Position numbers and translations under genes: made by a program. A model generated the notes under the pieces. That model did no database searches. It was given only the letters and a program-made list of their open reading frames with translations, and was not told where the DNA came from. 64,000 bases of DNA from a virus (taxonomy: Duplodnaviria; Caudoviricetes). The DNA lies in IMG/VR virus record IMGVR_UViG_3300043093_000048, positions 160,001-224,000 of that record; one strand, 5' to 3'. Position 1 is the first letter of the stretch, and every line of letters starts with the position of its first letter. Positions 39,036-61,962 of this stretch are shown here, one piece after another.

Positions 39036-39089
39036 ATTGACATTGATACCAGCAAGTCCCTTCATTGAAGCTGTACCCATTCTCTCTAA
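39036..39089 (-). CDS. vRNAP beta exon 2, 54-nt micro-exon (LERMGTASMKGLAGINVN)
   Basis: NPSLE+LERMGTASMKGLAGI aligns without gaps to RpoB [20 protein letters not shown]. Confidence 0.85.
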
Positions 39090-39463
39090 CAATTATTACT
39101 AATTGGACTATATCATCTTCTATAATAATTTATAGAAGCCTTGCACTTCGGACATATATTATATCCTACTCTACTCACTTCGTGTAAATATTTCAATTTA
39201 CCTTATTTTTAACTAGTTTATACTAGTATATTAGCTTTCGATAGTCTCTGAACGTTCTTCATTTTATTATGAAGCTTCGCTGCTAGATTTCCCATTATTA
39301 CAATACTTAGATTTTCATCATATATCAATTTAATTATTTTTTCCGTCTTTCGACTGCATTCACACTTATCTTTACAGATTATGTTGTAGCTAATTAAATA
39401 TTAGGGTTTACAAGCAATTCACAAGGTTATCATACATTATTACTAATATATGAGAGCTAATTA
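39090..39463 (-). mobile_element. Group I intron 1 (ORF-less, about 374 nt)
   Basis: P1 GAGT/GCTC, P2 CATATATTA-GTAA-TAATGTATG, AATTGCTTGTAAAC, GCAGCGAAG, TTCAGAGACTA, ATGATATAGTCC, P9 CAATTA-GTAA-TAATTG. Confidence 0.88.
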
Positions 39464-42196
39464 CTCAAGAGATGGGTTTAAACTTGAATAAGATTCAATT
39501 GTTTTTAATTCCATTAATTTCTTAGTTAAAATATCTGGATCAACAGTTATCTTGACTGGGTTTTTAGCATGTTTAGAATCTTTATAATGCTTAAATGAAT
39601 CAGCTAATACTTTATAAAGCATAGCAGGTACTTGTTCTGCACCACGAATTCTAAAGTTATTTACATCAGTTGGTTCAGAGAAAGAAATATCTTCTAATAA
39701 TGTATTAGCATATAATAAAACATCATAAACATTAGTAGGTAAATTTAATTCTTCTAGTATATCTTTAGTAATAGGATCTATTAATAAAGAAATTGAGTTA
39801 TGAAATCCCTTTGCAGCATTTCTTGAATTAAACGCATCACCAAAATAATCAATATAAGGATCTGGTGAATTCATATCTGCAAACACTATCTCAGAACAGT
39901 TCATTTCTAATAAACCTGAAAGAAGCATACTGTTTCTTATCTTAGAAGTATCATAATAAAGATAACCATCTTTAAATTTAATTTTACCTAAATCATCTTG
40001 TACACTTAAAGATCTATTGGTAGTTTCAAAAGTATACATGACTTTATATCTATCTAATAAATTTAATAATCCTAATTCATATCCTAATAAAACAGCTAAT
40101 GGAAGTGTTTTATTATTAATTTCCATTCTAGAATATGTTAATTTGATATTAGTTTTAATTTTAGCAGAAGTAATATCTTTAACTTTTTCAGTTGTATTAT
40201 TATAAACTAATTCAACAATCCATGAAGATAAAGTAATATCTAATGGCTCATATTTACTACCATTATATAAATAAATCTTTTTATCAATAATATTTGATAA
40301 AATTAATTTACTTTTATCTTTAGTATACCCTACCATGAAATATTCTTTTTTATCAAAAGTTGCTTTAACAGCAATTTTTTCATTATATAAAGGTTTCTTA
40401 ATATCCATAATATCTTGGATTTCTTGTTGATTAAAAATAAATATATAGTTTTCAATATTTAAACTATATAAATAAGATGAAATATCATTATATTCAGAAC
40501 TTACAGTATATTTACCATTATTCTTTAACGAATTACCAAATTTAAAATCAAAATTAGAACCTTGTTTTTTATATTTTAAAAGATTCTGCTTAGTAAATAA
40601 AGATTTTAAATAAGTAAGCTTTTCACTAAATTTCTGTCCAAATCTTGTTATAAAGTGCTTATTATAGTTTGTAGTAATTTGAACTCTATCTGGTTCTAAT
40701 TTAACAATTGGTAAGAAAACTATCTGTTTCATAATTACCTTTTTAGAACCATTTACATACATAAATTTACCTTCTTTAATTTCTGGCATATTTACTTTAA
40801 ATTTATGCGTAACATTAGTATCATCTTTAAATTCTACTTCAAGGAGCTGTTGCTTGTTCATATCAGTATTATTAGATTTTAAATTAATCTTATTAACATA
40901 TACACCAATATCATTATCATCATTAAATGATTTAAGAACCTTTGCAACATCTTTATTAAATTTTTTTTCCATATAAGTATCATCATAATCTTTTAATGTA
41001 CTTGTAAGGATTTCTTTATTAGTAACGTCTTTAATATTACCATCAGATATTTCTTTAGTATCTATTTTTTTATTTTCATAATTTTCTTTAAGATCTTTTA
41101 AAGAAACATCATTAAACATAATTTTTTCTTGTTGTATTTTTAATTGTTCTGCATTTTTTCTACGATCCCCATCTAATTTATCCTGCTGAACTTTTATTAA
41201 AGTATCTTTAAAAGCTTTATCATTAGTCATTAATTCCATCATTTGTTCTTCAGTCATATCAGTATCTTGATATTCATCAACAACTTCTTCAATCTTTTTA
41301 TCTACTTCAGAAATATTGTCATCATCTTCATTAACAGAAATACCAATTTCTTCAGCCATTTTTTCTTTAATATTATTTTTAGTAATTTCTTTTTCATCAG
41401 CTATAGCATTCTTTGAATTAACTTTTTCTATAAAATTACTTGAAGGAGTATTATTAGATACTTCATTTGTTTCAATACCTTCTTCAGATTTTATAACTTC
41501 TTCTAATTCATCAGAGCTTAATAATAAATGATTAATTCTAATATTGAATTTTTGTTTATTTTTATAAAAATCATCATCTACTGTAAATTTAAAGAATGTT
41601 TTATTCTTAGCTGATAAGAATATAAATTGTACTCCTTTAAAATACTCTAAGAAATAGTCAACTCTTTTCTTAATTGCAGTTACAAAGTAATAAAGAAAAC
41701 TTGTATTATCAGTAGCATCCATTCCATCTACATTAAATACAATAGCTTTATAATCATATTTAAATTCATTATATTTAACATTAATTTCATCAAAGAAATC
41801 TTTCATTTTTACTAAAGGACTCTTTTTAGTAGATTCTTGATTAATTAATAAATAAGGTGTCATATCATAAAATAAATTAAGATTTTTATAACTACTTATA
41901 TTTTGTCTACAAAGTAAATTATAATTTACTTTTTCTAAGAACTCTTTATAATGATTTGACTGATTAACCATTTTTCTTATTTTTTTATTATCTGAAACTA
42001 ATAATCTTTCTCTATAATAGCTTTTATAATAAGCTGGCATAAATATATTTGAATTAATAGTCTCTATAAAATTTTCACTAGTTTTACCAATATGTAGAAT
42101 TAATTGATTCTTTCTTAATTCTTTATTCTCACTTGATAAATTTTTAATAGGCTTCTTTATAAGTTTATAATCTTTATATTTATCTAAAACTATCAT
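39464..42196 (-). CDS. Virion RNA polymerase beta (N-terminal), exon 1; spliced product about 1397 aa
   Basis: FMYVNGSKKVIMKQ, NFRIRGAEQ, SSLNPSLE RpoB-like motifs; late promoter 42285-42296. Confidence 0.85.
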
Positions 42197-44882: not shown

Positions 44883-47800
44883 ATGGCTGGTTATAAATCT
44901 AGTAAAGAATTGTTAGACAAAGGAAAAAACAATTTAAAAGAAATGTCTGGACAAAATAAAGATTTAAATGAAACTATCGCTAGTTATTCTGAAGAGGAAA
45001 CAAGATTAAATGCTCCTACAAGTTCTAGAATGCAAGCAATAGCTGTTAGTGAAAAATTTATAAGTTCATTACAAGAAACTTCATCTTTAATAGAACAAAC
45101 TAATTCTAGTTTAGTTGGTTTTAAAAGTGCTTTAGAAGGTGTTGCGTCACAAGCTACAACAGCTACAAATTGTTTATTAGCTTCTAACTTAGTAAGCTTA
45201 ACTCAAATTAATAGTGTATTAAGTGCTTTTAGAGCGGATTTCTTAATAAATAGCTCTGGCGGAAAAGCTGATGGTACAGGTTATTATGATAAAAATCTTT
45301 TAACACAATCTTTAAGAGATATTAAAATACAAGATAGGGCTGTATTATCAATATTAAAGTATGTAAATAAAGCTGCTAATTATGCTAATAAATCTTCAAA
45401 TACTGTTAGAAGCCAACTTGGTAATAATACTATGGCTAAAGATGATGATGAATCAAATGGTATTATGGATAAACTACTTGGTGGTTTAACACAAGCAAAA
45501 GGTCTTGCAGGTTTAGGAGCATTTCTACAATTAGCTCCAGGAAAAGGAAAGGTTGGTAAAGCTTTAAATAAAATAGGTGGTAAAGCTGCTAATTTTGCAC
45601 AAGCTGATACATCTAGTATAGGTGGATTACTTGAATCATTAATGTCTGATAAACAAAAAGCACAAATTTTAGATCCTTTAAAATCTCTTGGTATGGATTT
45701 AGGTAATAAAAATGACCCTTTAAGCCAAATGCTCGGAGATTTTATGAAAAAGAATGGTCTTTCTAAATCTAAAAAAGAAAAAGAAAAAGACCCTAAATTA
45801 GTAATGACATCATTAGCTCCTTTTGCAGATGATATTAAAGATATGGTTGAAGTAAAAGTAAAAGCTATGCATGCTAGACCAACTTCAATACCTGATTATG
45901 CAACTCCTGTATGGGTTGTTAATAGTGAAGAACAAACAGACTATGTAAAAAATAAAGATAAAACTAAAGATAAAGAATTAACTAATAAAAGAATTGATGA
46001 AATATTCCAAGGTGTCGCCAATAATACTAAAGATAAATTTGGTAATGATTTATTAACTGCTAACTATGGAGAAAATGGTGTTACATACTCTGGCGTATTA
46101 GCTGATAAATATAGTAAGGGTAAAAAAGCTGTTAATGCTAGAAATGAATTAAATGATAAACAAAAAGCATCACAGAAAAAAGTTTATGACAGAAACCATG
46201 AAGATTCTAGTTGGGTTGATGAAAATGGTAAAATACAAAAAGGTGGAGGAGATTTTAAACAAGCAGCTGAAGAATTTAGTAAAAGCAGAGGTGCTGCTGA
46301 TAACTCTGGTATTTTAGGAGCTGCAGGTAGTTTATTAAGCGGTGATACTGAAGGAGCTTTAAATGTAGCATTACAAAGTATAATGAGCGGTGATGGTATC
46401 TCTGGTGCTTTTGGATATGGTAAAGGTTTATTTAATTTAGGAAAATCTGCTTTTGGTGGCATTAAAGGTTCACATAAAGGTGGTAAAAAGAAAGGAACTG
46501 GTAGTAAACCATATTTAGTACAAGTTCATGATAATGAAAGAATTCTTGGACCAGATAATGTAGCTGAACAAACAGCAATAAATGATACATCTAAAATACT
46601 CGGTATGACAATTGGTATGTTAAACTATGGTATTTCATTAACACAAATGAAAAATCAGTTATTTATTAAATATGTCAATAAAGAGAAATTTTCTCCTGAA
46701 GAATTACAAACTAATAATGAATTATTAGGTGCAGATGCTATTGCACAAATAGGTAAAGTATCTGATGCTTCTGAATATTTAAGAACTATTTCAGATTTAA
46801 AACAAAAATTATCTGGTAAGAAACAAGATAGACAGCTTGCAGAAAGACTAGATGATGGAAAACAAGAAAAAAAGAAATCTTTAAAAGATATAGTTAAAGA
46901 AAAATTAAAAGATGCTGAAAAAAAATTAAAAGATAAAGTTCAAGACTTCTTAGGTCTAAAAGAGGAAGAGGAGAAAAAAGATAAAGAAGATAAAGAGAAA
47001 AAAGTAGATGAGAAAAAAGATGAAATAGACCAACAATCTGATGCAGAAGTCTCTGAATATCAAGAAGAAAAAGCACAAGAAGTAGAAGATCAAAAAGAAG
47101 AAGCTGAAAAAAATGCACAAGCACAAGTTGCTGCAAATCAAGAAAAAATAGATCAACAAGTAGAAGATCAAGAAAAAGCACAAGAACAAGAAGGACAAGC
47201 ACAAGTTGCTGCAAACCAAGAAAGAATAAATCAAGAAGTTAAGCAAAAAATTGAAGAAGATAATGAAAATGCTGAAGAAAAAAAGAAAATAATTGATAAA
47301 TATGAAAATAAAATTAATGAAGTTGAGAAAAAAAGTAAAATGAAAGCTTTAAAAATAAAAATTAAAGGAACTAAAAAAGCATTAAAAGAAAAAATGAAAG
47401 GTGTTAAAGAAGCTTTTGATCTTTCGATGTTAGCTAATATTGATTTAAGTAATCTTAGTATTGATGGTATAAAAGAAATAATAAAAGATAAAATAAATGA
47501 TATTAAAAGAAGTTTAATAAATAAATTAAAAGCAAAAGCTAAAATTATTCTTAAAAGTTTAACAAAGAAAAATCTTATAGAAACTTTAAAAACTGAAAAG
47601 ACTAATTTACTTGAACGTATTAAAGGTATGGCTCATAATGCATCCGATATTATAGAAACTATTGGTACTGGTATGGGTGCAGCAGTAGATGCTTTAGAAG
47701 CAGTTCCTATAGCAGGTCCAGCCTTAAAATTAGCAGCAGGTATTGCCGCAGGTACAGCAGTTGCAGGAATTGGTTTAGCAATTAAAAAAGCTATTGATAA

Positions 47801-50800
47801 AGGTAAAGAAGCTAATGTAAATGCAGATAAAGAAACTAAAAAATTTGAAAAGACAGCAGATAAAGAAAAAAAGAAAGCAGAAAAAGAACAAGAGAAAAAA
47901 GATAAAGAAAAAGAAAAAGAAGAAAATTCTAAAGCTAAAGCTTCAACAACTCAAGAAAAAGAAAAAGATGATAAAGATATAGATAAAACTAAAGATGAAT
48001 TAGATAAATTTAAAACTGATGATGAAAAAAATGGAAAAGCTAAACCTCATAAAAAAGGTGGTTTATTAGGTGCTTTGCTTGGTGGACCAAAAAATGATTT
48101 ATTACATTATTTAAATAAAAATCAAATAAAAGCTTTAGAAACAGGTTCTAAAAGCAAATTTGCTAATTTAATGCTAAAAGATCCTAAAAAAGCAGCAAAT
48201 ATTATATTTATGCTTAATGGTGGACCAATGCTTTTAGGGTTTAAAGATACTAAAACAGAAGATTTAAATAATCTTGAGAGTGTTACAGCTACCAATTCTA
48301 ATTCAAACTCTAGTTCTAGTAGTAAAAATACTATTTGGTCTAAATTAAAAAATAAACTTAGTCAAAAGAAATTACTTTCTGATGATTTAAGTGATGAAGG
48401 ATATTCTGAGAATATTGATACTGCTGCTTTACAATATGAACAAACTAAAAATAGTGCTAATATAATTTCTGCTTTTGCTAGTGGATTAGGTTTTGCAAAA
48501 TTAGAAGATGACTCAGGAACTTCACTATTTACAACAACTATTAGAAAAACAGCACAGCAAGAAGCTTTAACTAAAAACTTAGGAACAGCAACTGCTGCTT
48601 CTACAACTTCAACTGGTACTACTGCTGCTTCTACAACTTCAACTGATGATGATAGTAGCTCTTCAGACAATCGATTTAATGGTAGTAAATATATTGGCTA
48701 TGATGAAGATGGTACTTGGAGTAATAGTACTACTAATAGTGATATTGATAGTAGTGGTTATTTTTCTAAAAGTAATTCTTCATCGTCAAAAACTTTAGTT
48801 ACAAAAATATTAAATAATAACTGGCTTAAATATAAAAATGATAATAATATAACTGATAGTACAACAACTAATGGTAGTTCTTACCCTAGAAAATTTTTAA
48901 ATTCTGAATATGATAAAATGTATACTGCATTTATTAGTGGTGTTCCTTTTAGTGGAACAACTTCTAAAAATTATATGCATTCTAAATTAGCAAGTTCTAT
49001 TAGTGAATCAGATGCTTGGACTGTTCCAGATTCTATTAAAAACTCAGATACAGAAAAAAATGCTGTAAGAGATTATATAAATAAAAAATCTGGAGTTAAA
49101 TATACTAAATATGGTTTAGGTATTTCTGGGTTATATGGATTAGGTGATGAAAATGATGAAGACTTCTTAGATGCTTCAGGATATGCTCTTTCTAAAGGTT
49201 ACAAAGAAAAAGATGGTGGTACTTATCCTCAATTTTTTACTGACTATCTTAAAAAAGATAATATCGAAGTAGAAAATGCTGGAAGTGTTAATAAAATAAA
49301 AAATAGATTAGCTAGTGGTAGTCCAGTAATTCTTATGGGTAAAGATGAATCAGAAAACGGTACAACTCCTTATGGAGCAGAACCTCACTATGTAGTAGCT
49401 ACTGGATATGATGGTAAAAATATTAGAGTAGTTGACTCTGAAAGTACTAATGATTATGATATTTATAATGCTGATAAAGTATTAAGTCATTCATCAATTA
49501 AATTAGGAACTACTAATAGTAAAAAAGGTAAAGGAAGAAAAGTTAGAAGTAAATCTGGAAGAGCTAGAAAAACTTCAAAAAATAAAAAATATGATAATAA
49601 AAGAACAGTTGGTGGTTCTAGAACATATAGTACAACTATAATAAAATCTGCTTCTGATTACGGTACTTCAAGTTCTTCAAAAATTTCTAATAATTATTCA
49701 AAACAAAATAATTCTTCTAGAAGAGTTAGTAATAATAGAAGAAAGAGTTATTTAAAATCAGGAAAAGGAAAATATGGAAGAGGTTATGTTGAACAAATTA
49801 ATGCAAATCCAGAATTATTAAAAGGTGCTCAAGATGGTTGGACTATGTATGGTATCTTAGCATCAGTAACATTAGCACAGTCTATTATTGAATCTGGTTT
49901 TGGTACTTCTAATTTAGCAAAGAATTATCATAACTGGTTTGGACATACTGCTGGATTTGCTAGTGATAAATATATGACTGGTACATATCAAGGATCACAT
50001 GAATGGGCTGTATATGCTTCTGATGGCGACTGCTTTAGAGACCATGCTTATGTATTATCTGGTCAATCAGGTAATACTAGATACATGGCTGCAGTAGGCG
50101 AAGCAGATCCTAGAGCTTCTATTACAGCAATTGAAAATGGTGGTTATTGCGAAGGTGATCCAAATTCTTATATTGATAAAGTAATGAATATTATTGATAG
50201 TTATAATTTAACTCAATTTGATGTAGGCGAGTATAATGGTGTTGCAGCAGGCAGTGGAGCAGTAGTTTATTCTAAGACTTGTTGGACTGGTGACTCACGT
50301 ACAGAACAAATGGCTAATTACTTTAGTGATTTAGAAGTATATGCTACAAAAGGTGGACAAACTATTGATTACTTTAATCAACACTATTCAGAAATTTCTG
50401 ATAAAGAAGGCTATAATATTTTCTGTTGGTATGGTGTAAATGGTGCAACAGCATCTGGAGCACAAAAGACAGCAGAAGCTTATAATAAATTAGCTACTGA
50501 CTTAAAAGGTAAGTCACAAGTATTCGCTGGTACAATCGGTCATTGTCCCAATGGTACAGGAAGTGGTAAAGTAGAAGGCGGTGCAGGGCAATCTATTGAA
50601 ACACAAAATGAAGGTGTTGTTACATTCAATACTGAATTATTACAGAATCTTTCAAGTGATATTATAGTTATTGATACTTATACTTATATTAAAAGTCTTG
50701 AAGATAGTATGGGTGCAGAAGCTATGACTACAGATAACTTACATTATACTAAAGAATGTAGTCAAAAAATTAGAGAATATGTAAATCAACAAATTCAAGC

Positions 50801-51488
50801 AGCTTCAGCAACTGCAACTACGGCTACTTCAGATGCAGGTGTTGCTATTGGTGATTTATATGTAACATTAGAAGGTTATGTTGATGCTAAAGATGTTTTA
50901 TCACAATATGCTTCTGGAGATGATATATGGGATGGCGTTTCATCTTATAATTATGCGGATAGCTCGGATTATACATCTACCGCTGCTGCAAATTATGATC
51001 CAACAAGTAGTAGTGAAGATGACGAAACATCTACTGCAACTCCAACAGCTTCTAGCAGTTCTTCATCTACACCAACATCTAGTAGTACACCTTCTTCTAG
51101 TGATAGCACTTCTAGTTCTACTAGTAGTAGTACTCCATCATCTAGTAGTACACCTTCTTCTAGCGGTAGTACTTCTGGTTCTACTAATAATCCTACTACA
51201 ACAACCACTACTACAACTCCAACAGTATCTACGCCAACTGATAGCAATACATCTACAGAAATATATCAAAGTAATGGTACATTATATGTAGTAAATAATA
51301 TTGAATATGGAATTAAAGCTAATATAGCAGATATTCTAAAAGAATTTAATGAATTAAATGACATACAAGATGATAGCTTAGATATATTAAATGTAATATA
51401 TCAAAAATTATTAAAACGTAATGGAAAAAGTAAAAATACAAAAATTGATGGTTATGACTATTCTTTAAAGTATAGAAGATTCGTATAA
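44883..51488 (+). CDS. Giant tail/tape-measure-like lysin A: helical scaffold + C39-like C-half + GH73 glucosaminidase + SGNH hydrolase
   Basis: GSPVIL...HYVVATGYD...VVDS; SVTLAQSIIESGFG...HNWFG; WTGDSRT...GVN...DNLHY. Confidence 0.8.
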   Translation: MAGYKSSKELLDKGKNNLKEMSGQNKDLNETIASYSEEETRLNAPTSSRMQAIAVSEKFISSLQETSSLIEQTNSSLVGFKSALEGVASQATTATNCLLASNLVSLTQINSVLSAFRADFLINSSGGKADGTGYYDKNLLTQSLRDIKIQDRAVLSILKYVNKAANYANKSSNTVRSQLGNNTMAKDDDESNGIMDKLLGGLTQAKGLAGLGAFLQLAPGKGKVGKALNKIGGKAANFAQADTSSIGGLLESLMSDKQKAQILDPLKSLGMDLGNKNDPLSQMLGDFMKKNGLSKSKKEKEKDPKLVMTSLAPFADDIKDMVEVKVKAMHARPTSIPDYATPVWVVNSEEQTDYVKNKDKTKDKELTNKRIDEIFQGVANNTKDKFGNDLLTANYGENGVTYSGVLADKYSKGKKAVNARNELNDKQKASQKKVYDRNHEDSSWVDENGKIQKGGGDFKQAAEEFSKSRGAADNSGILGAAGSLLSGDTEGALNVALQSIMSGDGISGAFGYGKGLFNLGKSAFGGIKGSHKGGKKKGTGSKPYLVQVHDNERILGPDNVAEQTAINDTSKILGMTIGMLNYGISLTQMKNQLFIKYVNKEKFSPEELQTNNELLGADAIAQIGKVSDASEYLRTISDLKQKLSGKKQDRQLAERLDDGKQEKKKSLKDIVKEKLKDAEKKLKDKVQDFLGLKEEEEKKDKEDKEKKVDEKKDEIDQQSDAEVSEYQEEKAQEVEDQKEEAEKNAQAQVAANQEKIDQQVEDQEKAQEQEGQAQVAANQERINQEVKQKIEEDNENAEEKKKIIDKYENKINEVEKKSKMKALKIKIKGTKKALKEKMKGVKEAFDLSMLANIDLSNLSIDGIKEIIKDKINDIKRSLINKLKAKAKIILKSLTKKNLIETLKTEKTNLLERIKGMAHNASDIIETIGTGMGAAVDALEAVPIAGPALKLAAGIAAGTAVAGIGLAIKKAIDKGKEANVNADKETKKFEKTADKEKKKAEKEQEKKDKEKEKEENSKAKASTTQEKEKDDKDIDKTKDELDKFKTDDEKNGKAKPHKKGGLLGALLGGPKNDLLHYLNKNQIKALETGSKSKFANLMLKDPKKAANIIFMLNGGPMLLGFKDTKTEDLNNLESVTATNSNSNSSSSSKNTIWSKLKNKLSQKKLLSDDLSDEGYSENIDTAALQYEQTKNSANIISAFASGLGFAKLEDDSGTSLFTTTIRKTAQQEALTKNLGTATAASTTSTGTTAASTTSTDDDSSSSDNRFNGSKYIGYDEDGTWSNSTTNSDIDSSGYFSKSNSSSSKTLVTKILNNNWLKYKNDNNITDSTTTNGSSYPRKFLNSEYDKMYTAFISGVPFSGTTSKNYMHSKLASSISESDAWTVPDSIKNSDTEKNAVRDYINKKSGVKYTKYGLGISGLYGLGDENDEDFLDASGYALSKGYKEKDGGTYPQFFTDYLKKDNIEVENAGSVNKIKNRLASGSPVILMGKDESENGTTPYGAEPHYVVATGYDGKNIRVVDSESTNDYDIYNADKVLSHSSIKLGTTNSKKGKGRKVRSKSGRARKTSKNKKYDNKRTVGGSRTYSTTIIKSASDYGTSSSSKISNNYSKQNNSSRRVSNNRRKSYLKSGKGKYGRGYVEQINANPELLKGAQDGWTMYGILASVTLAQSIIESGFGTSNLAKNYHNWFGHTAGFASDKYMTGTYQGSHEWAVYASDGDCFRDHAYVLSGQSGNTRYMAAVGEADPRASITAIENGGYCEGDPNSYIDKVMNIIDSYNLTQFDVGEYNGVAAGSGAVVYSKTCWTGDSRTEQMANYFSDLEVYATKGGQTIDYFNQHYSEISDKEGYNIFCWYGVNGATASGAQKTAEAYNKLATDLKGKSQVFAGTIGHCPNGTGSGKVEGGAGQSIETQNEGVVTFNTELLQNLSSDIIVIDTYTYIKSLEDSMGAEAMTTDNLHYTKECSQKIREYVNQQIQAASATATTATSDAGVAIGDLYVTLEGYVDAKDVLSQYASGDDIWDGVSSYNYADSSDYTSTAAANYDPTSSSEDDETSTATPTASSSSSSTPTSSSTPSSSDSTSSSTSSSTPSSSSTPSSSGSTSGSTNNPTTTTTTTTPTVSTPTDSNTSTEIYQSNGTLYVVNNIEYGIKANIADILKEFNELNDIQDDSLDILNVIYQKLLKRNGKSKNTKIDGYDYSLKYRRFV
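45480..45683 (+). repeat. 204-bp identical direct repeat, copy 1 (copy 2 at 52146-52349)
   Basis: Direct sequence comparison. Confidence 0.85.
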
Positions 51489-51512
51489 TTATTGAGATAG
51501 GAGTGATAAGAT

Positions 51513-54500
51513 ATGGCAAATATGAAATCTTCAAAACAGACAGCTAATCAAGCTACTAACAATCTTGATCCAAATATGAGTAAAATAGCTGAGCAAACAA
51601 GTGCTATAGCATCAAGCTTATCTCAACAAAGTAGTTCGATTCAAGCTTTAAAAGATTCTATATCTAGAAAAGAAGCTAGTGATGAAAAATCTAATAAACA
51701 AATTACTTCATCATTACAAAATTCTGATAAATATATACTTTCTATTAATACTAATTTAAAAAATATGAATCAAACAATAAGCTCTATGTCAAGTGTTGTA
51801 TCTAATATGACAATGAATAGTAGTGCTACAGTATCATTGTTAGGTTCTATTCAAACAAGTTTAGTACAAATTACAAGCGTATTAGCAGCTTTTAGATCAG
51901 ATTATTTATTAGTAAGTAGTGGTAATAAAGCAGATGGTACAGGTTATTATGATATGAACCTCTTAAAAGAAATTGGCAGTTCTTTAAGAGGTGTTAAAAG
52001 TGCTGAATTACAAAGACAAATTAGTTCAATTATTAAAGCTGCTAATTATGCTAATATGGCTTCTAATTCCGTTAGAAGTAAGCTTGGTAATAAAAATATG
52101 GCTAAAGATGGTGATGAACCAACAGGTGCTATAGATAAATTATTAGGTGGTTTAACACAAGCAAAAGGTCTTGCAGGTTTAGGAGCATTTCTACAATTAG
52201 CTCCAGGAAAAGGAAAGGTTGGTAAAGCTTTAAATAAAATAGGTGGTAAAGCTGCTAATTTTGCACAAGCTGATACATCTAGTATAGGTGGATTACTTGA
52301 ATCATTAATGTCTGATAAACAAAAAGCACAAATTTTAGATCCTTTAAAAAGTTTAGGAATGGACTTAAAAGGTAAAAATGATCCTTTAAGCCAAATGCTT
52401 GCTTCTTTTATGGATAAAAATGGATTATCAAAAGATAAAAAAGAAAAAGAAAAAGATCCTAATCTAGTTTGGTCGGCTTTAGCTCCTTTTGCAGATGATA
52501 TTAAAGATATGGTTGAAATGTCTTATGAAGGAGTTAAAAAAAGACCTAAAGCTATTCCTATATATGCTACACCTGTATGGGTGGTTAATAGTAAAGATCA
52601 AAATAATTATGTAGATCATTCTAAAGGAACTAATGAAAAAGATTTACTTAATAAAAGAATTGATGAAATATTCCAAGGTGTTGCTAATAATACTAAAGAT
52701 AAATTTGGTAATGATTTATTATCCATTAACCAAGGTGATAATGGTACAACATACTCTGGCGTATTAGCTGATAAATATAGTAAGGGTAAAAAAGCTGTTA
52801 ATGCTAGAAATGAATTAAATGATAAAAGAAATGCTGCTAATAAAAAAGTTTATGATAGAAATCATGAAGACTCTAGTTGGGTTGATGAAAATGGTAAAAT
52901 ACAAAAAGGTGGAGGAGATTTTAAACAAGCAACTGAAGAATTTAGCGGTATTAATGGTGCAGCAGGCAATTCTGGTATTTTAGGTGCAGCTGGTAGTTTA
53001 TTAAGTGGCGATACTGAAGGAGCTTTGAATGTAGCATTACAAAGTATAATGAGTGGTGATGGTATCTCTGGTGCTTTTGGTTACGGTAAAGGTTTATTTA
53101 AAATGGGAAAAGCTGCTTTTGGTGGCATTAAAGGTTCACATAAAGGTGGTAAAAAAGGTAAAGGTGTAGATCCACGTAAAAAAAATGATAAAAACTCTTA
53201 TGAAAATAGAGATGAAACTACTAATGAGCATGAAGTAACTCCTATTACTGCAGAAACTACTATTTTAAATGAAAAAGATACTAAAGAAGCTAAAACTAAT
53301 AGAGATATTTTAACAGGACAAATTACTGTAGCAGGTGCTATTAATGCTTTAGTAGATATGAGCACACAAGAAAATATTTATTTAAGTCAAGCTGTAAATG
53401 ATGGCAAAGTTGATCCAACTAAAGTTAAAAAATATCCAAGTTCTTTTGATAGTTTAATAAAATTAGCTTCTTCTTTAAAAATAGATAAAGCAGGTTTAAA
53501 AGCTATTAGTCAATTTAAAAAAGTTTCTGATTTAACTAAAGTTATTAAAAAACCTAAAAATAAAACTATGACAACTTCTGAATATTTTTATGGCAAAACT
53601 CCTGAAGAATTAGAAGAAGAAAATAATGAAAAAGAAGGAGAAGAAAAGAAAGAAACTCCACTCGAAAAACTTATGAATAAAATTAATGACAAGAAAAAAG
53701 ATATTACTGATAAATTAAAGGATAAAGTTACAGGTAAATTAAAAGATAAAGTTATGCCTAAAGCTAAAGAATTAGGAAAAAAAGTATTAAATAAAGTTGA
53801 GAATAAGTTTGGAATGGCAGCAGGATCTGTAGGTAAAAAAATTAAATCTATGAAAGATATGAAAAAAAATTTTGAGGATAAAGTAGATAAAAAAGTAGAT
53901 GCTGCTCTTGATAAAGGTATGGATTTAGCTGCAAAAGGTGCTAAAAAAGTTGGTGGTGCTTTAGTAGGTCTTGGTAAAAAAATGGCTAATAAAATGAAAA
54001 AGAAAAAAGACCCAAATGCCGAACTTGAGAAAATGTATGAAGACCAATTAAAAGCTAAACAAGATGTTGGTGAAAAAGAAAAGGAAGCTGCAGAATATGC
54101 AGTAGCTAAAGAAAAGGAAGCTGCAGAAGATGCAGCAGCTAAAGAAAAAGAAACAGCACAGGAAATATCGGATGAAGAAAAGAAGGCTGCAGAAGAAAGA
54201 GAAAAAACTAGAAAAGAAAATGAAGAAAAGCTTAAAGAAAAAAGAGAACAAGCACAGAAACAAGAAATAGAACATGAACAAGCTGCTGCAGATGCTGAAC
54301 TAGCAGTTAAAACAACAACTGCTGAAACTGAAGGAGCAGTTCAAGAAGCTGCTGCTACTGGTGAATCTGGTTTTAGTATTACTGGTGCTATTAAAAATGC
54401 TATAACAAAAGTTTCTGGTTTGCCATTGCCTGCTAAAATAGCATTAGGTGCTGCTGGTGTTGCTGCAGTAGGTGCTTTAGGAGCAAAGTTAATTAAGAAA

Positions 54501-57500
54501 ATTAAAAAAATGGCATCAGGCAAAGGTGGAAAAGGTTCTGGAGATTCTGGTGGCAGTGAAGCAAAAGCTTCAGTTAGTAAAGATGCTACAAAAGCTGCTA
54601 AAAAAGAACAAAAGAAACAAGAAAAAGAACAAAAGAAACAAGAAAGAAAAGAAAAAAGAGAAAAAGCTAAAAAGAAAATAAAAAGAGGTGCAAGATCTTT
54701 TCTTAATAGATTAACTGGTGGATTAACTGCTGCAAAAGTTTATGTAGATGAAAATGGTGATGTTTTAAAATCTAAAGGTGACGAACCAATCATGATGTTA
54801 GATGATAATGGCGATGAAACAGACCAAACTTTAAATGTTAAAGATAGTGATGGTAAAAAGCAGTTTCTTAAAAGATTAATGAAAAGAGAATTTAAAATAG
54901 ATAAAGGTAAAGCTCTTAAACAAGCTTTAAATAAAATTAAAAATAAAGCTAAAGAAAAAATAGAAGCTGCTAAAGAAAAAATATCTGAAGGTAAAGAAAA
55001 TGCTAAATCTTCTTTAAAAAAAGGTCTTGGAATTGCAGGAAAAATAGGTCTTGGATTAATAGGTGGTCCAGGTGCTTTAATTGCAGGTGGTTTAGCTAAA
55101 AAAGCTATTGGTGGATTAACTAAAAAGAAAAATGAAAAAGCCGATAAATTAAATCAATTATTATTAATGTCATCTTCTGCTTATTTATTCATGGATTCTA
55201 AACTTCAAGAACAATTAGAAAATATTGAAAATAGTGATTTTGGTAAATTAATAAATGAAAATCCACAACAAGCTTCTAGCTTATTATTTAGTACTGCTGC
55301 AAGTAGTCTTAATAGTATAATTAGTGGTGTATCAGATGTTACAAGTGATTTATCGTCTGTTGTAAGTAGCTTAGTCGATAAGGTTACTGGTGATGATGAA
55401 GAAACTAAAGCTAAGTCTGCATATTCTTCAGACTTATCGGATGGCTCTTTCAGTGAAAGTGCTACAGTTGCTTATGCACAGATGAATGAACGTAATAATA
55501 ATAATGAAGTATTAAACTCTTTTGCTAAAAGTATAGTCGGAACAGCTTCTACTGCTAGTGATAATGGTAATGCAATGACTACTTCTAAATTAGTTAATTC
55601 AGAAAGAAAAAATAATGCTGTAAAAATTGGTGTAGTAGATGGTGTGGCAGGAAGTTCAGCAACAGCTTCTAGCGGTAATGGTGGTGCAGGTGTCTTAGCT
55701 GCAACAGCTCAAGTCTGTGTAGCTTATAACAACGCAGGTATTACTGGTAAAGAAGGTGACTATAATCAAGATGGCTTAACCCTTGATATTAATGTTGGTG
55801 GGCAAACTATTAATACTAGACCTGACTGTACTGGTTTGATTGATGCTGTACTTGAATATATGGGTTATGATTCTGAAAAAATGAATTCTCTTAAATTTAA
55901 AGAATGCTCAGGTATTAAAGACTCTTCTGGTAATATTTCTACAGACTGGACTCTTATTGATAGCCCTGAATTAACTGATATTCAAGCAGGCGATATTTGT
56001 ATCGTAAATAGTAATGGTAATCACCATGGTGAAATTGCTGCTGGTCCTATTGATGATAGTGGTACATTATATGGATTTAACTATGGTTGGGAAACAGGTA
56101 TGAAAAGATCAAATGCTGCTGCAGCAGAAGCTTTAGCAGGCACTGATTATTTAACTGCTTGTATTAACAATAGTTCTACAATTAATGGACATAAATATTA
56201 TGACCGTATTATTAGATATAATGTTGCTACAACTACTAACTCTAATTCATCTTCTTCTGCTTCTGTATCAGCAGGTATGTCAGCTGATACATTCTTTATT
56301 AATGATTTAGGATTAGATTCTTCTAATCCAACATCTAGAGGATTCTCTGCACATAAAGGTACTGACTATAGAGCAGCTTCTGGTACAGCAGTTCATACAC
56401 CAACAGGTGGTACTGTTGTTAAAGCTACTAAGGATCAAGCATCTATTTCATCATCTATGGGTAGATATGTAATAATTAAAGATAATGATGGTAACTATTG
56501 GAGATATATGCATTTTAGCGCTATACCTTCTGTTGCTACTGGAGATAGTTTAACACCTGGTCAACTTATTGGTTATTCAGGTGGAGATACTAGTGACCCT
56601 TATAGAGGTGATTCTACTGGAGCACATCTTCACGTAGACTTATCATCATCAAGCACAGTTGATGGCAAGAATAATAATATGATGGATGTACAAAAGTATA
56701 CTTTAACTGGTAAAGGTAGATCAAGTAATAATCATATTTATCAAAGAGATTATTCTAATTATATTTATAATACCGATAAAGACTCTGAATTACAAACATT
56801 AGGTGACTCTGGTTGTGGACCTGCTGCAGCAACTGCTGTTAAAAGATATTATGTCGGAAGAGGTCTTAAGAAGTATGGTGGAGATAAAGAAGATGATACA
56901 ACTACAACTGATACAACAACAGCAACTGCTTCTGAAGATACAACTGATACAAATACTGCAACAGATAGTACAGCAGATGCATCTACAACACAAAAAACTG
57001 CAACTGTTGGTGAATCAGTAACAGTTGTTGATGAGAAATTTAATCATACTTATGAATTAACTTTACAACAATGTCATATAGATGTATGGAATGGAATAAA
57101 AGCTGCAGGACTTACTGACGAAGCTGCTTGTGGTGTTTTAGGTAACTTTCTATCAGAATGTGGTAGCGGTGACTGGAACGAAGAAGTTGCTAAAGGTAAA
57201 ACAGGTTATGGCGGTGGTCTTATGCAATGGACTCCTTATACTAAGCACCAAAATTGGTGTACTTCAAATGGTTATAGTGGTAAAGATACTACAATGGAAG
57301 CAAATATAGCTCATGTCGTTTATGCTTTACAAAATGAAGGTAACTTCTCAAATCCAGCAAGTGCTGATCCTTCTTTAGCTTCACAAGGTTATAATCCTGT
57401 AAGTTCTTATGAAGAATTTAAAGCTTTAACTAGTGTAGAAGATGCAGCAGTTAACTATGAAAGAATTTACGAAGTATCATATAACTGGAATGGTAAAACT

Positions 57501-58508
57501 AGCGAAAATGCACATGCTCTTGAAGATTGGGAAATGTATGATAGACCTAGAGTATATCACGCTATATGTTTCTATAATTTACTCTGTGGTACATATAAAG
57601 GCGGTACAACATCAGGTTCTACTTCTGCTGTTTCAGGAAATCTTGGTTTAACTGGTTATATTAATTTAATTACAGATAGCGCAGTTGATGGTTCTTCATT
57701 ATCTAGCTATTTATCTGGTTCTAATATCTGGGATACATCTTCAAGTTCATCTTCAGATAGTAGTGATGGTAGTACAGATAGTAGTACAACTTCAACTGAT
57801 AGTAATTCATCTTCAGGGTCTGGTAGAGGAAAACGAAGATTTGCTAGAAGTCATAAAAGAAATGGAAAAGGTAAATATGGTTTTGGTATTACAAGTGAAG
57901 ATTCAGTAGGATTTGCTAATACACACTTCGTTGCAGCAGGTAGTGATGATGATTCTTCAACAGATAGCACAACTTCTTCAAGTAGTTCTTCTAGTGATAG
58001 TTCTTCATCAGCATCTCCTTCAAGTAGTTCTTCTTCAAGCAGTAGTAGCTCATCATTAAATAATACATCAAGCAGTAGTACAAATTCATCTAATAATAAT
58101 AGTAGTAGTTCTTCAAGTAGTAGTACTCCTTCTACAAATTCATCTAATAGTTCTTCATTAAGTGCAACAATAGATTCTTATATTAAAAATAAAATGACAC
58201 TAACTGATGTAGATAGTAATGGTAATAAATCTTCAACTACTAATATATATACTAGTGATAATAAAACTACTTTAACAACTAATGGTAAAACTACTATAGT
58301 AATTTGTAATAATTTTGCTGAAAAATCAACAACTGATTTAAGTAATATATTAACTAATTTTAAACGTTTAAATGGAACACAAAACAATGCATTAAAAGTA
58401 TTAAACGCTATTTCAGATTTAATTAAAGAAGAAAATACTAGCGAAGATGGAATAACTAAATTAAGATTAGATAATGATGGATTAGATTATATATTAAAAG
58501 GATTATAA
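51513..58508 (+). CDS. Giant tail/tape-measure-like lysin B: paralogous scaffold + NlpC/P60 + M23 + C39-like N-half + phage tail lysozyme
   Basis: PDCTGLI...GDI...HHGEI; HKGTDY...YMH...STGAHLH; YQRD...DSGCGPAA; EAACGVLGNFLSEC...GLMQWT. Confidence 0.82.
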   Translation: MANMKSSKQTANQATNNLDPNMSKIAEQTSAIASSLSQQSSSIQALKDSISRKEASDEKSNKQITSSLQNSDKYILSINTNLKNMNQTISSMSSVVSNMTMNSSATVSLLGSIQTSLVQITSVLAAFRSDYLLVSSGNKADGTGYYDMNLLKEIGSSLRGVKSAELQRQISSIIKAANYANMASNSVRSKLGNKNMAKDGDEPTGAIDKLLGGLTQAKGLAGLGAFLQLAPGKGKVGKALNKIGGKAANFAQADTSSIGGLLESLMSDKQKAQILDPLKSLGMDLKGKNDPLSQMLASFMDKNGLSKDKKEKEKDPNLVWSALAPFADDIKDMVEMSYEGVKKRPKAIPIYATPVWVVNSKDQNNYVDHSKGTNEKDLLNKRIDEIFQGVANNTKDKFGNDLLSINQGDNGTTYSGVLADKYSKGKKAVNARNELNDKRNAANKKVYDRNHEDSSWVDENGKIQKGGGDFKQATEEFSGINGAAGNSGILGAAGSLLSGDTEGALNVALQSIMSGDGISGAFGYGKGLFKMGKAAFGGIKGSHKGGKKGKGVDPRKKNDKNSYENRDETTNEHEVTPITAETTILNEKDTKEAKTNRDILTGQITVAGAINALVDMSTQENIYLSQAVNDGKVDPTKVKKYPSSFDSLIKLASSLKIDKAGLKAISQFKKVSDLTKVIKKPKNKTMTTSEYFYGKTPEELEEENNEKEGEEKKETPLEKLMNKINDKKKDITDKLKDKVTGKLKDKVMPKAKELGKKVLNKVENKFGMAAGSVGKKIKSMKDMKKNFEDKVDKKVDAALDKGMDLAAKGAKKVGGALVGLGKKMANKMKKKKDPNAELEKMYEDQLKAKQDVGEKEKEAAEYAVAKEKEAAEDAAAKEKETAQEISDEEKKAAEEREKTRKENEEKLKEKREQAQKQEIEHEQAAADAELAVKTTTAETEGAVQEAAATGESGFSITGAIKNAITKVSGLPLPAKIALGAAGVAAVGALGAKLIKKIKKMASGKGGKGSGDSGGSEAKASVSKDATKAAKKEQKKQEKEQKKQERKEKREKAKKKIKRGARSFLNRLTGGLTAAKVYVDENGDVLKSKGDEPIMMLDDNGDETDQTLNVKDSDGKKQFLKRLMKREFKIDKGKALKQALNKIKNKAKEKIEAAKEKISEGKENAKSSLKKGLGIAGKIGLGLIGGPGALIAGGLAKKAIGGLTKKKNEKADKLNQLLLMSSSAYLFMDSKLQEQLENIENSDFGKLINENPQQASSLLFSTAASSLNSIISGVSDVTSDLSSVVSSLVDKVTGDDEETKAKSAYSSDLSDGSFSESATVAYAQMNERNNNNEVLNSFAKSIVGTASTASDNGNAMTTSKLVNSERKNNAVKIGVVDGVAGSSATASSGNGGAGVLAATAQVCVAYNNAGITGKEGDYNQDGLTLDINVGGQTINTRPDCTGLIDAVLEYMGYDSEKMNSLKFKECSGIKDSSGNISTDWTLIDSPELTDIQAGDICIVNSNGNHHGEIAAGPIDDSGTLYGFNYGWETGMKRSNAAAAEALAGTDYLTACINNSSTINGHKYYDRIIRYNVATTTNSNSSSSASVSAGMSADTFFINDLGLDSSNPTSRGFSAHKGTDYRAASGTAVHTPTGGTVVKATKDQASISSSMGRYVIIKDNDGNYWRYMHFSAIPSVATGDSLTPGQLIGYSGGDTSDPYRGDSTGAHLHVDLSSSSTVDGKNNNMMDVQKYTLTGKGRSSNNHIYQRDYSNYIYNTDKDSELQTLGDSGCGPAAATAVKRYYVGRGLKKYGGDKEDDTTTTDTTTATASEDTTDTNTATDSTADASTTQKTATVGESVTVVDEKFNHTYELTLQQCHIDVWNGIKAAGLTDEAACGVLGNFLSECGSGDWNEEVAKGKTGYGGGLMQWTPYTKHQNWCTSNGYSGKDTTMEANIAHVVYALQNEGNFSNPASADPSLASQGYNPVSSYEEFKALTSVEDAAVNYERIYEVSYNWNGKTSENAHALEDWEMYDRPRVYHAICFYNLLCGTYKGGTTSGSTSAVSGNLGLTGYINLITDSAVDGSSLSSYLSGSNIWDTSSSSSSDSSDGSTDSSTTSTDSNSSSGSGRGKRRFARSHKRNGKGKYGFGITSEDSVGFANTHFVAAGSDDDSSTDSTTSSSSSSSDSSSSASPSSSSSSSSSSSSLNNTSSSSTNSSNNNSSSSSSSSTPSTNSSNSSSLSATIDSYIKNKMTLTDVDSNGNKSSTTNIYTSDNKTTLTTNGKTTIVICNNFAEKSTTDLSNILTNFKRLNGTQNNALKVLNAISDLIKEENTSEDGITKLRLDNDGLDYILKGL
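52146..52349 (+). repeat. 204-bp identical direct repeat, copy 2
   Basis: Identical to 45480-45683. Confidence 0.85.
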
Positions 58509-58547: not shown

Positions 58548-58579
58548 TAATTAAATTTAAATTGAAGGGAGTAATTAAT

Positions 58580-60055
58580 ATGCCAGATAGTTTTACTGAT
58601 ACTTCTTCAGCTTTTGAAGGTACTGACTTAGAAACTGAAGGTTATGAAACTTTTTATTCAGAAGATAGTGAACATTCTAATGTTATTGACACTACTGATA
58701 CTCAAGATTCAGAAGGTCTTACGACAACTGGACAAGCTATGTCTTCTCATATGGTAACAACTTTAACAGGTTCAACATTTAAGGGTATGGTATATGGTTA
58801 TGATAATAAAGTATTTGGAATGCCTTATAAATATACAACTTTAGCAGATCCTTTAGCTAGAGTTTATCAATCTACTTTTGAATCAGATAATACTTGTATA
58901 GCATTTATTAAATTTGGAACACCTAATATTAATAGACTTTTATATCAAAAAATGTCAGCCGATACTACTGATGCTGAAAATTCATCATTTGGTATTGGCT
59001 CTAGTATCATGCTAGGACTTAGATCTGCAGTAGACCCTGAGCATAAAGCCACGGATCAAAATTTAATTTCTTTTCATGAAGATATGTCTGAATTTATGAA
59101 ATATGCTTCATCTTCATTATCACAAGTTTATACATTATTAGACCTTCCAGGTTATTTCTCAGCAGATGATTCTTGGGATGTTTTTAATGATAATGGTTTT
59201 GCTTTTTATTGTGTAAAAACTGGTTCCTTTCAAGAAGGTGTTTCAAATACTTATACTGAACCATCTATTATTTCAAGTATGAATGGTAAAGCTGCTGAAA
59301 TGAGAGAAAATTATCAGTTATATGGTACTTATGGAAATGTAAATACTGGTGGCTCAGCTACAAGTTGGTTAAATAATATTGCTACAGGTTTAGTTGAAAA
59401 TATTACAAATGCTATTGCAAGTCTTCCAATTGTTGGTTCTGTAGCATCTGTATTCATGACAACCAATAAAGGTTCTATGTCATATTATGGAAAAATATGG
59501 TCTGATTCTAAATCAGATAGATCAATATCAATGTCATTTAAATTTAGAACACCATATGGTAATAAATATGATATATTTAGAAATGTATTATTTCCATTTT
59601 TATTATTACACACAGCTTCAATCCCTAAACAAGATGGTAGATATAGTTATCAAGAACCTTTTATGATACAAGTAGATTTTCCAGGATGGTTTAGAGTAAA
59701 TTGTGGTGTAATTACTAATTTATCATGGGTCAAAGGTGGAGATAATCAACTATGGAATAGTGATGGATTACCATTAGAATTAAGTGTAACAATGGCTATT
59801 GAAGATTTATATCCTATTGAATTATCTTCAAAAAATATGACTGTTATTGCTTATAATTATGGTTTATTATCATTTCTAGAAAATTTAGCAGGATTAACTA
59901 CAAGTGAATGCTCATCCTTCTTAGGTGATGAAGCAATGGGTATTTATATAAAACAAAATTTAGCTAAATATGGCGGAACAATAGGTGGAACAATTCATTC
60001 TTATATGAATGCAGCATTCCGTAGATTTACAGGTAGTTCATTTATGGGTTTTTAA
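58580..60055 (+). CDS. Baseplate tube-like protein (T4 gp48/54-like)
   Basis: IWSDSKSDRSISMSFKF...GVITNLSW...DGLPLELSVTMAIEDL; follows tape-measure-like genes. Confidence 0.6.
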   Translation: MPDSFTDTSSAFEGTDLETEGYETFYSEDSEHSNVIDTTDTQDSEGLTTTGQAMSSHMVTTLTGSTFKGMVYGYDNKVFGMPYKYTTLADPLARVYQSTFESDNTCIAFIKFGTPNINRLLYQKMSADTTDAENSSFGIGSSIMLGLRSAVDPEHKATDQNLISFHEDMSEFMKYASSSLSQVYTLLDLPGYFSADDSWDVFNDNGFAFYCVKTGSFQEGVSNTYTEPSIISSMNGKAAEMRENYQLYGTYGNVNTGGSATSWLNNIATGLVENITNAIASLPIVGSVASVFMTTNKGSMSYYGKIWSDSKSDRSISMSFKFRTPYGNKYDIFRNVLFPFLLLHTASIPKQDGRYSYQEPFMIQVDFPGWFRVNCGVITNLSWVKGGDNQLWNSDGLPLELSVTMAIEDLYPIELSSKNMTVIAYNYGLLSFLENLAGLTTSECSSFLGDEAMGIYIKQNLAKYGGTIGGTIHSYMNAAFRRFTGSSFMGF

Positions 60056-60747: not shown

Positions 60748-61962
60748 TTGTTTACCACTTATATGAATGAAAATATTTCTTTAACTGAAGAAATATATCC
60801 TATATTTATTTTACTAACAAGAGGAAAAAGTATTATTAGTGGACCAATTAGTAAAATAACTAAATCTCCTTTTACACATTGTTCAATAAGTTTAGATCCT
60901 AAACTTAGATATTTCTATAGCTTTAATTTTTTAGATAAATTTAATCGAGGTTTTGTAAAGGAAACTAGACAAAGCTTAACAAAAAATACAAATTCAACTA
61001 ATATTTCAGTATTTTTTGTTAATAAAGTAATATATAAAAATATTAATAGAAATCTTAAATTTTTTAGTGATAATAAGGATAAAACTAAATATAGTTTTAA
61101 GAGATTATTTGAAGCAGCTTTTAATAAAGGAAAAGAAAAAAATCCTTATGAACAAGTATGTTCTTCATTTGTATACTCTATATTGAAAAATGCAGGTGTA
61201 CAATTAGCTCCAGATAATATAAAATGTGTAAAACCTTCTGATATAGCAAAAACAGTAATTAACAATAATAAATATATCTATGAAATTTTTGATGGTCCAA
61301 TATTAGATTTAAATACAGATGATATTACATTAAAAATAGAAAAATTAAAAAACTCTTCTAAATCTAGATTATATAATCAAGATAAAATAGTTTTAGAAGA
61401 AAGCATCCATCCAGAAACTGTTGATCGTTCTAATTATGATAACTTTACTTTATATGGTTTATTTCATATTTATACTACTAATTTTTCTTTAAGAAACGAT
61501 CCAAAATTTTTAGAGAATATGAAATGGGTTAAAGAACGTATAGAAGAAATTTGTAAAATGGCTGGATGGATAGCTTTTCCTTATGAATTAACTTTATGTG
61601 ATACTTTTGATGATTTAAATGTATTTTATAATTATGAAGCTCCTATATGGGTAACAGGATTTACATATGGTGATAAAGTATATATGAAAGCACCAAATAT
61701 TTATCCAGGTACTCTCTATTATAATGTAGTATTACATGAATGTATACATGTTCAAATATATTTAAATGAAAAAGTTAAAGGAAAATTTATTAGTAGAGAA
61801 GATGAAGAAGGAATGGCAGTTTTCTTTAGTACACCATTGGATGTTTGGCTTAGAGAACTTAATCACGGTCCAAATTGGTATTATTATGAAAGTTCTATAA
61901 GAGTTCAAGATGATTTTATGCGTGGTGGAATGGAATATGTTAAAGAAAAACGATTTATTTAA
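60748..61962 (+). CDS. Permuted papain-like (YiiX-type) domain fused to a HExxH metallopeptidase
   Basis: SPFTHCSISLD...QVCSSFV; VLHECIH...EEGMAVFF. Confidence 0.65.
   Translation: MFTTYMNENISLTEEIYPIFILLTRGKSIISGPISKITKSPFTHCSISLDPKLRYFYSFNFLDKFNRGFVKETRQSLTKNTNSTNISVFFVNKVIYKNINRNLKFFSDNKDKTKYSFKRLFEAAFNKGKEKNPYEQVCSSFVYSILKNAGVQLAPDNIKCVKPSDIAKTVINNNKYIYEIFDGPILDLNTDDITLKIEKLKNSSKSRLYNQDKIVLEESIHPETVDRSNYDNFTLYGLFHIYTTNFSLRNDPKFLENMKWVKERIEEICKMAGWIAFPYELTLCDTFDDLNVFYNYEAPIWVTGFTYGDKVYMKAPNIYPGTLYYNVVLHECIHVQIYLNEKVKGKFISREDEEGMAVFFSTPLDVWLRELNHGPNWYYYESSIRVQDDFMRGGMEYVKEKRFI

Follow-up and report, generated by a model that had tools for sequence, protein, structure and literature searches.

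Some viral proteases need a short segment of another protein for their activity, as the adenovirus protease does with pVIc and flavivirus NS3 with NS2B, and the naturally split inteins, such as cyanobacterial DnaE, supply one small catalytic fold from two genes and rebuild it by association of the fragments. The peptidases PCAT1, ComA PEP and LahT150 (PDB 8vp5, 3k8u, 6mpz) share the Gln/Cys/His/Asp arrangement of the domain described here and cut after small Gly-containing motifs. The domains described for mycobacteriophage lysin A proteins include N5, a cysteine protease module of the C39-like type (PMC3314691). Our subject is a window of 64,000 nucleotides (the whole stretch of DNA that was analysed), bases 160001-224000 of IMGVR_UViG_3300043093_000048, a 265,109-bp virus record of an uncultivated jumbo phage that CheckV rates as complete; the GC content of the window is ~25%. 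Two neighbouring genes in it, A and B, encode giant proteins that carry complementary pieces of a single C39-like cysteine protease domain, here called the C-half (in A) and the N-half (in B).

44883-51488, + strand: gene A (P0001), an open reading frame (ORF) with a translation of 2201 amino acids (aa); giant virion protein at the tape-measure position, with the C39-like C-half and a glucosaminidase domain
51513-58508, + strand: gene B (P0002), an ORF with a translation of 2331 aa; paralogue of A, with an M23 domain, the C39-like N-half and a phage tail lysozyme domain
51486-51512, + strand: spacer between A and B, reading as four in-frame stops (TAA, TAG, TGA, TAA) and an AGGAG ribosome-binding site
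49155-49529, + strand: C-half of the C39-like peptidase domain, A residues 1425-1549; positions 51-177 of the intact-domain profile (E-value (E) 3.8e-42), without the Cys helix
56715-56861, + strand: N-half of the C39-like domain, B residues 1735-1783; positions 4-50 of the intact-domain profile (E 1.1e-14)

The two ORFs lie head to tail on the + strand, and A and B are separate proteins because four in-frame stops and a ribosome-binding site stand between the genes. A read-through fusion of A and B, which share a frame here, is ruled out by the stops, of all three kinds, and is further excluded by a related 259-kb contig (L004) in which the two genes are in different frames.

Two halves of one peptidase domain

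Neither A nor B carries a whole Peptidase_C39_2 domain on one polypeptide; the halves are on two genes. A residues 1437-1519 cover only positions 56-142 of the 143 positions of Pfam Peptidase_C39_2 (PF13529), at E 1.4e-8 and 35.9 bits (the score cut-off of the family being 24 bits). The C-half includes His1502 (codon 49386-49388) and Asp1518 (codon 49434-49436), and A has no Cys whatsoever between residues 98 and 1716, as a preliminary description of this DNA had said for the region upstream of the C-half. The N-half reads HIYQRDY...GDSGCGPAAA and consists of a strand with Gln1744 (56742-56744) and a helix beginning at Cys1768 (56814-56816), followed by GRG, a Thr-rich linker and the Phage_lysozyme2 domain. 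Taken alone, it scores 17 bits against Pfam (profile positions 12-94), below the cut-off, and Pfam scans of B residues 1700-1800 or 1725-1800 gave no C39 match because the N-half is too short; the link came via profiles of intact relatives.

One such profile, A3, was built from 39 intact homologous domains and searched against the whole 265,109-bp genome in six frames. It retrieved two matches only, positions 51-177 in A and 4-50 in B, with no overlap and no gap. When each half was compared by hhalign to the intact-domain alignment, the N-half took columns 4-50 (probability 99.6, E 8e-25) and the C-half columns 49-176 (probability 100, E 1.5e-50). The break between the halves falls at profile position 50/51, in the loop after the first (Cys) helix. 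A search of PDB sequences with the N-half profile gave nothing meaningful, and with the C-half the only match was the Bacillus anthracis C39-like peptidase 3erv (E 0.15), which is also a fold match. The catalytic layout of Peptidase_C39_2, with Cys at the start of the first helix, the oxyanion Gln upstream of it and His and Asp in the sheet, is present across A and B together; in the intact domains, the columns that correspond to these four residues are invariant for Q, C and H and nearly so for D (at least 90% of rows).

The preliminary description had proposed two complementary, non-overlapping halves of one C39-like domain. The A3 matches bear this out, as do the intact domains of relatives, and the membership of both halves in one family agrees with the hhalign comparisons to intact Peptidase_C39_2-type domains. 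Its numbering of Q1744 and C1768 in B and of H1502 and D1518 in A is correct, and all four residues are invariant in orthologues. The possibility of another C39 partner elsewhere in the genome is excluded, as there are no more than these two matches in 265 kb.

Predicted pairing, conservation and relatives

An AlphaFold2 model of the intact domain of one relative, P0097 (residues 3408-3584), had a mean predicted local distance difference test score (pLDDT) of 91.6, and its best Foldseek matches in the PDB were the C39 peptidase domains of PCAT1 and ComA, LahT150, PeiR and papain-like CdiA toxins, with a probability of 1.00 and a TM score of ~0.6 for the top matches. The complex of the A and B halves, predicted from two family alignments, scored 0.83 (runs of 0.86, 0.82 and 0.83), whereas the highest of the three controls scored 0.00. 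Among solved complexes 58 of 80 reach this mark, and among mismatched pairs 2 of 110; since halves of one fold can score by their likeness to solved C39 structures, the score shows compatibility, not binding. The runs had at least 82% of contacts in common, with a partner pLDDT of at least 67, and the modelled interface includes His1502-Tyr-Val-Val and the Cys1768 helix. The pLDDT of the C-half (82-84) fell to 58 with unrelated partners, and that of the N-half was 67-70 with the A C-half and 31 with an unrelated body. In an AlphaFold2 model of B residues 1595-2040, the M23 and lysozyme domains fold (pLDDT ~65-90) and the N-half is predicted to be disordered (pLDDT 26-33); a cis partner for the N-half within B is thus unsupported.

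Residues at the modelled interface are preferentially invariant on both sides, 20/40 in A versus 23/96 elsewhere (p = 0.003) and 18/34 in B versus 4/27 elsewhere (p = 0.002). To judge from the model, the groove of A for the helix has been kept although A has no such helix in cis. The complex model, which the preliminary description had suggested as a check, supports predicted binding of the A and B halves.

Conservation was taken as identity to the reference along alignments of full-length orthologues, and averages 0.33 (A) and 0.34 (B). Among the A orthologues, no 50-aa window exceeds the one in the C-half, at 0.75. Residues 1741-1781 of the N-half average 0.70 versus 0.34 for the whole of B, and, with 0.66, its best 50-aa window comes third in that protein; the M23 (0.33) and lysozyme (0.39) domains of the B orthologues both fall below the N-half. 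No change is seen at Gln1744, Cys1768, His1502 or Asp1518 in at least seven phage genomes, and the N-half has 22 invariant positions in 47 residues, Gln and Cys among them. The alignments clearly indicate strong purifying selection on both halves, and their conservation together with that of the catalytic residues excludes mere decay, which the preliminary description had named as a result that would count against it.

A word-indexed search with A found 16 giant relatives, comprising A-types (n=9) with the C-half only (55-69% identity) and B-types (n=7) with the N-half only (50-73% identity). An exhaustive profile search with the C-half retrieved 850 proteins at E ≤ 0.001, 465 of them at E ≤ 1e-10; of the 150 matches listed, most have a length of 3000-6000 aa. 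A profile of the N-half, made from B-type proteins only, matched directly upstream of the C-half match in ~126 more distant giants, and more weakly in a further handful; P0030, for example, has the N-half at 3377-3421 and the C-half at 3423-3545. Single-sequence phmmer searches gave the same contiguous picture in the distant giants, and the contiguous domains cover positions 12-142 of Pfam Peptidase_C39_2 at 51-53 bits. In these intact relatives the order is N-half, C-half and Phage_lysozyme2, often then M23, and by its domain order B looks like this arrangement minus the C-half.

No protein of the split clade carries both halves. The survey of relatives for intact and split forms that the preliminary description had called for gave ~126 intact contiguous domains and a split in seven genomes, in each of which an A-then-B tandem lies beside an RNA polymerase beta gene: this genome, L004, a 154-kb contig (L005) and the pairs P0006+P0012, P0005+P0016, P0010+P0015 and P0020+P0018. 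The last tandem is on the 306-kb contig of P0018, where an upstream gene of 1597 aa was equated with P0020 by gene length. The 50/51 break is identical in every related locus read (L003, L004 and L005). L003 (IMGVR_UViG_3300043104_000318) is a 50-kb public contig with the same A/B region and a 100% identical C-half, so this phage has been sampled at least twice.

The C-half tree unites the split-clade sequences in a single clade (support 98/97), whose sister (95/89) consists of intact domains including that of P0097, and the N-halves of this P0097-like sister group score highest against the B profile. Together these results show that the split arose once, from an intact ancestor, and that it is ancient. 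On the same comparisons, the common origin of the halves, their exact complementarity and their co-occurrence are clear. At the sequence level, the two parts have the features of a split two-gene enzyme: they are non-overlapping and gap-free, lie on separate genes, co-occur and are under selection.

Some lineages have an intact domain plus an orphan C-half beginning at profile position 49-51 (L006 17708-19759, P0021; L011 8461-8967 and 11852-12232), that is, one N-half per two C-halves. An origin of the split through such an 'intact plus orphan' intermediate is rejected by the tree, in which the orphan C-halves of P0021-like proteins arose independently. An independent trans-split at P0160 was also rejected, the giant upstream of it having an intact domain. 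Searches by tblastn of 50,697 phage records found no match to the C-half region or the shared N-terminal block, and generic M23 lysins only for the M23 region; the N-terminal 560 aa likewise had no match in the 50,697 records.

Other domains, candidate tags and genomic setting

The remaining domains of the two giants are as follows.

45051-46454 (A) and 51696-53120 (B), + strand: N-terminal block common to A and B, 72% identity over 479 aa; candidate co-assembly region
49827-50210, + strand: glucosaminidase domain of A (cell-wall glycosidase), residues 1649-1776 (Pfam PF01832, E 2.4e-23)
56349-56645, + strand: Peptidase M23 domain of B, residues 1613-1711 (Pfam PF01551, E 1.9e-16)
57081-57488, + strand: Phage_lysozyme2 (phage tail lysozyme) domain of B, residues 1857-1992 (Pfam PF18013, E 1.4e-17)

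The 72% identity of the N-terminal blocks, each ~480 residues long, bears out the earlier view of A and B as paralogues; their last ~100 residues are weakly alike and their middles differ. The names 'lysin A' and 'lysin B' used in the preliminary description are apt to the extent that lysin domains are present, and are otherwise loose, as these are giant virion proteins at the tape-measure position. In 6 of 7 genomes, A and B resemble each other over their N-terminal 540 residues more than either resembles any orthologue, which points to concerted evolution (gene conversion) in tandem paralogues that keep different payloads. Such homogenisation is compatible with a requirement that the N-termini match, or with nothing more than recombination of the tandem copies. 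The comparative data thereby document subfunctionalisation below the level of the domain after gene duplication, together with concerted evolution of paralogue N-termini. A residues 1791-2000 (window 50253-50882), after the glucosaminidase domain, are also conserved among A orthologues (~0.5 identity) and have no Pfam match at E ≤ 1.

Short tags of the form aromatic-Gly-x-Gly (YGLG, KYGRG, KYGFG, FGKG) occur just ahead of the C-half, behind the N-half and ahead of other domains, here as well as in relatives.

49110-49145, + strand: two YGLG tags, A residues 1410-1413 and 1418-1421, directly before the C-half; candidate processing sites
49773-49784, + strand: KYGRG tag preceding the glucosaminidase domain of A
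56856-56882, + strand: GRG (B residues 1782-1784) and KKYGG, directly after the Cys helix, where the C-half begins in intact domains

In B, the GRG/KKYGG stretch is followed by the Thr-rich linker to the lysozyme domain. Similar tags precede the C-half in A orthologues and the orphan C-halves elsewhere, and from these positions cleavage at the YGLG tags may be expected. A G-x-G is found in the loop after the Cys helix, at the split site, in 59 of 126 intact domains as compared with 12% of random windows, and self-cleavage at this loop tag may leave even the intact enzymes as complexes of two chains. Examples of loop tags in intact relatives are FGRG, YGRG and YGTG, in P0021 (2642-2647), P0037 (~2692), P0057, P0078 and P0087.

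Downstream of B lies the gene that anchors the locus to those of other jumbo phages.

58562-60055, + strand: virion structural protein gene (phrog_20401, E 6.5e-70); synteny anchor to AR9-like and phiKZ-like tape-measure loci

By tblastn, this gene has matches in Bacillus phage AR9 and in Staphylococcus and Listeria jumbo phages, and it has homologues in phiKZ-like phages. Its homologue in AR9, gp204, adjoins gp203, which is annotated as 'tail tape measure protein'. In L007 and L011 the order of giant, virion protein and RusA is as in AR9; RusA is not in this window. No tape-measure family was matched by A or B in Pfam and PHROG scans. AR9 gp203 was considered as a cultured model and set aside, as it is without the C39-like domain.

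The phage carries split multisubunit RNA polymerase beta genes. In the window, an RNA polymerase beta gene lies in pieces at 36210-42196 on the - strand (ORFs of 911 and 469 aa), separated by an HNH/homing endonuclease ORF (37962-38960), and this fits the intron-interrupted RNA polymerase genes that AR9-like jumbo phages have. At 60748-61962, two genes beyond B, is a 404-aa protein with an enoyl-CoA hydratase/crotonase-like PHROG match (E 2.7e-9), which might be a ClpP/crotonase-fold protein in the virion module. The single tRNA gene in the window is a tRNA-Tyr (GTA) at 22981-23068 on the - strand.

Proposed mechanism, alternatives and known systems

We propose that A and B are tandem paralogues of a giant tape-measure-position virion protein in an AR9/phiKZ-related jumbo phage, and that their ancestor would have held one intact C39-like (Peptidase_C39_2) domain, then the tail lysozyme. 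After duplication, B would have kept the first ~47 residues, with the oxyanion-Gln strand and the catalytic-Cys helix, and A the other ~125 residues, with the helical sub-domain and the His/Asp sheet. The most likely mechanism would be fold complementation in trans, in which the B helix docks in the conserved groove of the A C-half and docking rebuilds the Gln/Cys/His/Asp site. Because the Cys piece is in one protein and the His/Asp piece in the other, formation of the enzyme is probably confined to places where A and B meet; the peptidase would exist only where the two stand side by side, probably once both are built into the same tail structure, and their co-assembly would proceed through the matched N-terminal blocks. 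The likeliest substrates would be the aromatic-Gly-x-Gly tags that mark the borders between domains in A and B, i.e., polyprotein self-processing, and tags bracketing the C39 domain and other borders do fit a protease that cuts its own polyprotein. Taken as a whole, a trans-complemented C39-like peptidase of A and B that processes its own tags is our best explanation and, we believe, a rather probable one. Catalysis, its substrate and timing, the tail location and the maturation switch put forward in the preliminary description are what we infer from this arrangement.

A bolder version, which we offer tentatively and consider somewhat unlikely, is that the active site forms only in the assembled tail (or at ejection) and cuts both giants at the aromatic-Gly-x-Gly tags, releasing the lysin modules, so that the protease would serve as a built-in assembly sensor; the 'intact' enzymes would also be two-chain after self-cleavage. 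If they are, this would explain how the split could evolve.

Several observations weigh against the trans-complemented peptidase and its self-processing. Orphan C-halves that keep His and Asp occur in the same protein as an intact domain in P0021, P0022, P0025 and P0027, and in P0160 (L011) an orphan C-half lies in the gene after the intact domain. A C-half without its own Cys helix is consequently not proof of a 1:1 split enzyme, and the C-half may have a role that needs no dedicated N-half. The complex score possibly reflects the model's memory of solved intact C39 folds. The excess of tags over shuffled sequences is modest (5 versus 1.0 in A, 3 versus 1.0 in B), and the tags have a residue other than Gly at P2, in contrast to classical C39 sites. 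Lastly, the tail location of A and B is taken from position, through synteny with a gene itself annotated by position.

The orphan C-halves, which are independent in P0021/22, P0025/27 and P0160 and come without an orphan N-half, would suit a reading in which the halves no longer cooperate, the A C-half being a non-catalytic binding or structural module and the B N-half, e.g., a docking or recognition segment. We consider this quite improbable: a 47-residue fold-core fragment with 22 invariant positions is hard to explain without a fold partner, the predicted disorder of the N-half in cis gives way to predicted order beside the C-half, invariant columns are enriched in the C-half groove, and the halves always co-occur. 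It is harder still to credit that the halves are functionless, decaying leftovers of a duplication with complementary deletions. The architecture did arise via duplication and differential loss, but the halves are among the most conserved stretches of proteins otherwise diverged to ~33% identity, the four catalytic residues are invariant in at least seven genomes and the break point is fixed. The related contigs, moreover, are not near-identical strains, with an orthologue N-terminal identity of 35-59%.

The main alternative accepts that the halves pair and makes the rebuilt domain a peptidoglycan stem-peptide endopeptidase used for infection, a tail-tip lysin module in place of a maturation protease; the split would then merely tie its activity to the presence of both giants. 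The domain does sit among M23, glucosaminidase and tail-lysozyme modules, and in intact relatives it is followed by Phage_lysozyme2 and often M23. Its family is Peptidase_C39_2, the C39-like module N5 is found among mycobacteriophage lysin A domains (PMC3314691), and one of the top fold matches is PeiR, a pseudomurein endoisopeptidase. Nevertheless, the best fold matches are the double-glycine leader peptidases PCAT1, ComA and LahT150, and aromatic-G-x-G tags flank this domain and other domain borders in A, B and related giants. We regard a cell-wall peptidase as somewhat unlikely, and favour a processing protease over it only slightly.

Compared with what is known, the nearest systems are the intact Peptidase_C39_2 giants of 3000-6000 aa (P0097, P0030), which belong to the same family (matches at E 1e-14 to 1e-50) and share the context of a giant at the tape-measure position, a C39 domain then Phage_lysozyme2, and G-x-G tags at the borders. 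In those giants the domain is contiguous in one protein, whereas in A and B positions 4-50 and 51-177 are in two paralogues, with the gene for the C-half first. Bacillus phage AR9 has at the same position a giant gene (gp203) and then the gene for the homologous virion structural protein, but there it is a single gene of 1925 aa without a C39-like domain, and here there are two giants. In the bacteriocin ABC exporters, the C39 domains (PCAT1, ComA, LahT150) that best match the modelled fold are 15-21% identical to the phage domain; they are single-chain, fused to transporters and cut at Gly-Gly sites, in contrast to the aromatic-Gly-x-Gly tags of the phage, which are candidates. The N5 module of mycobacteriophage lysin A has a C39-like fold in a modular cell-wall hydrolase, as a single-chain endolysin module that is neither part of a virion giant nor split. 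In the literature on C39 domains with tape measure proteins or jumbo phages, and on naturally split cysteine proteases, we found no published description of such a system, nor of such an assembly-gated split design for papain-like enzymes.

The likeness to the adenovirus and flavivirus proteases is that activity would be tied to assembly by an added segment of another protein. In those cases the segment (pVIc, NS2B) is a cofactor peptide and the protease chain has all catalytic residues, whereas here the nucleophile Cys and the oxyanion Gln would both be supplied by the B piece. The split inteins differ in fold and chemistry, and intein halves splice their hosts, while nothing suggests ligation here. 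If the proposal is true, it would give a concrete answer on the processing of jumbo-phage giants of the tape-measure type and on the timing of release of cell-wall enzymes, and a small natural two-piece protease (~47 + ~125 residues) as a model for split-enzyme engineering. The peptidase family itself is known; what is new is a catalytic core divided between two paralogous structural proteins, and, if the active site is rebuilt, A and B would form a natural, evolutionarily stable protease with the split running through the catalytic core itself and with activity that depends on two structural proteins assembling together.

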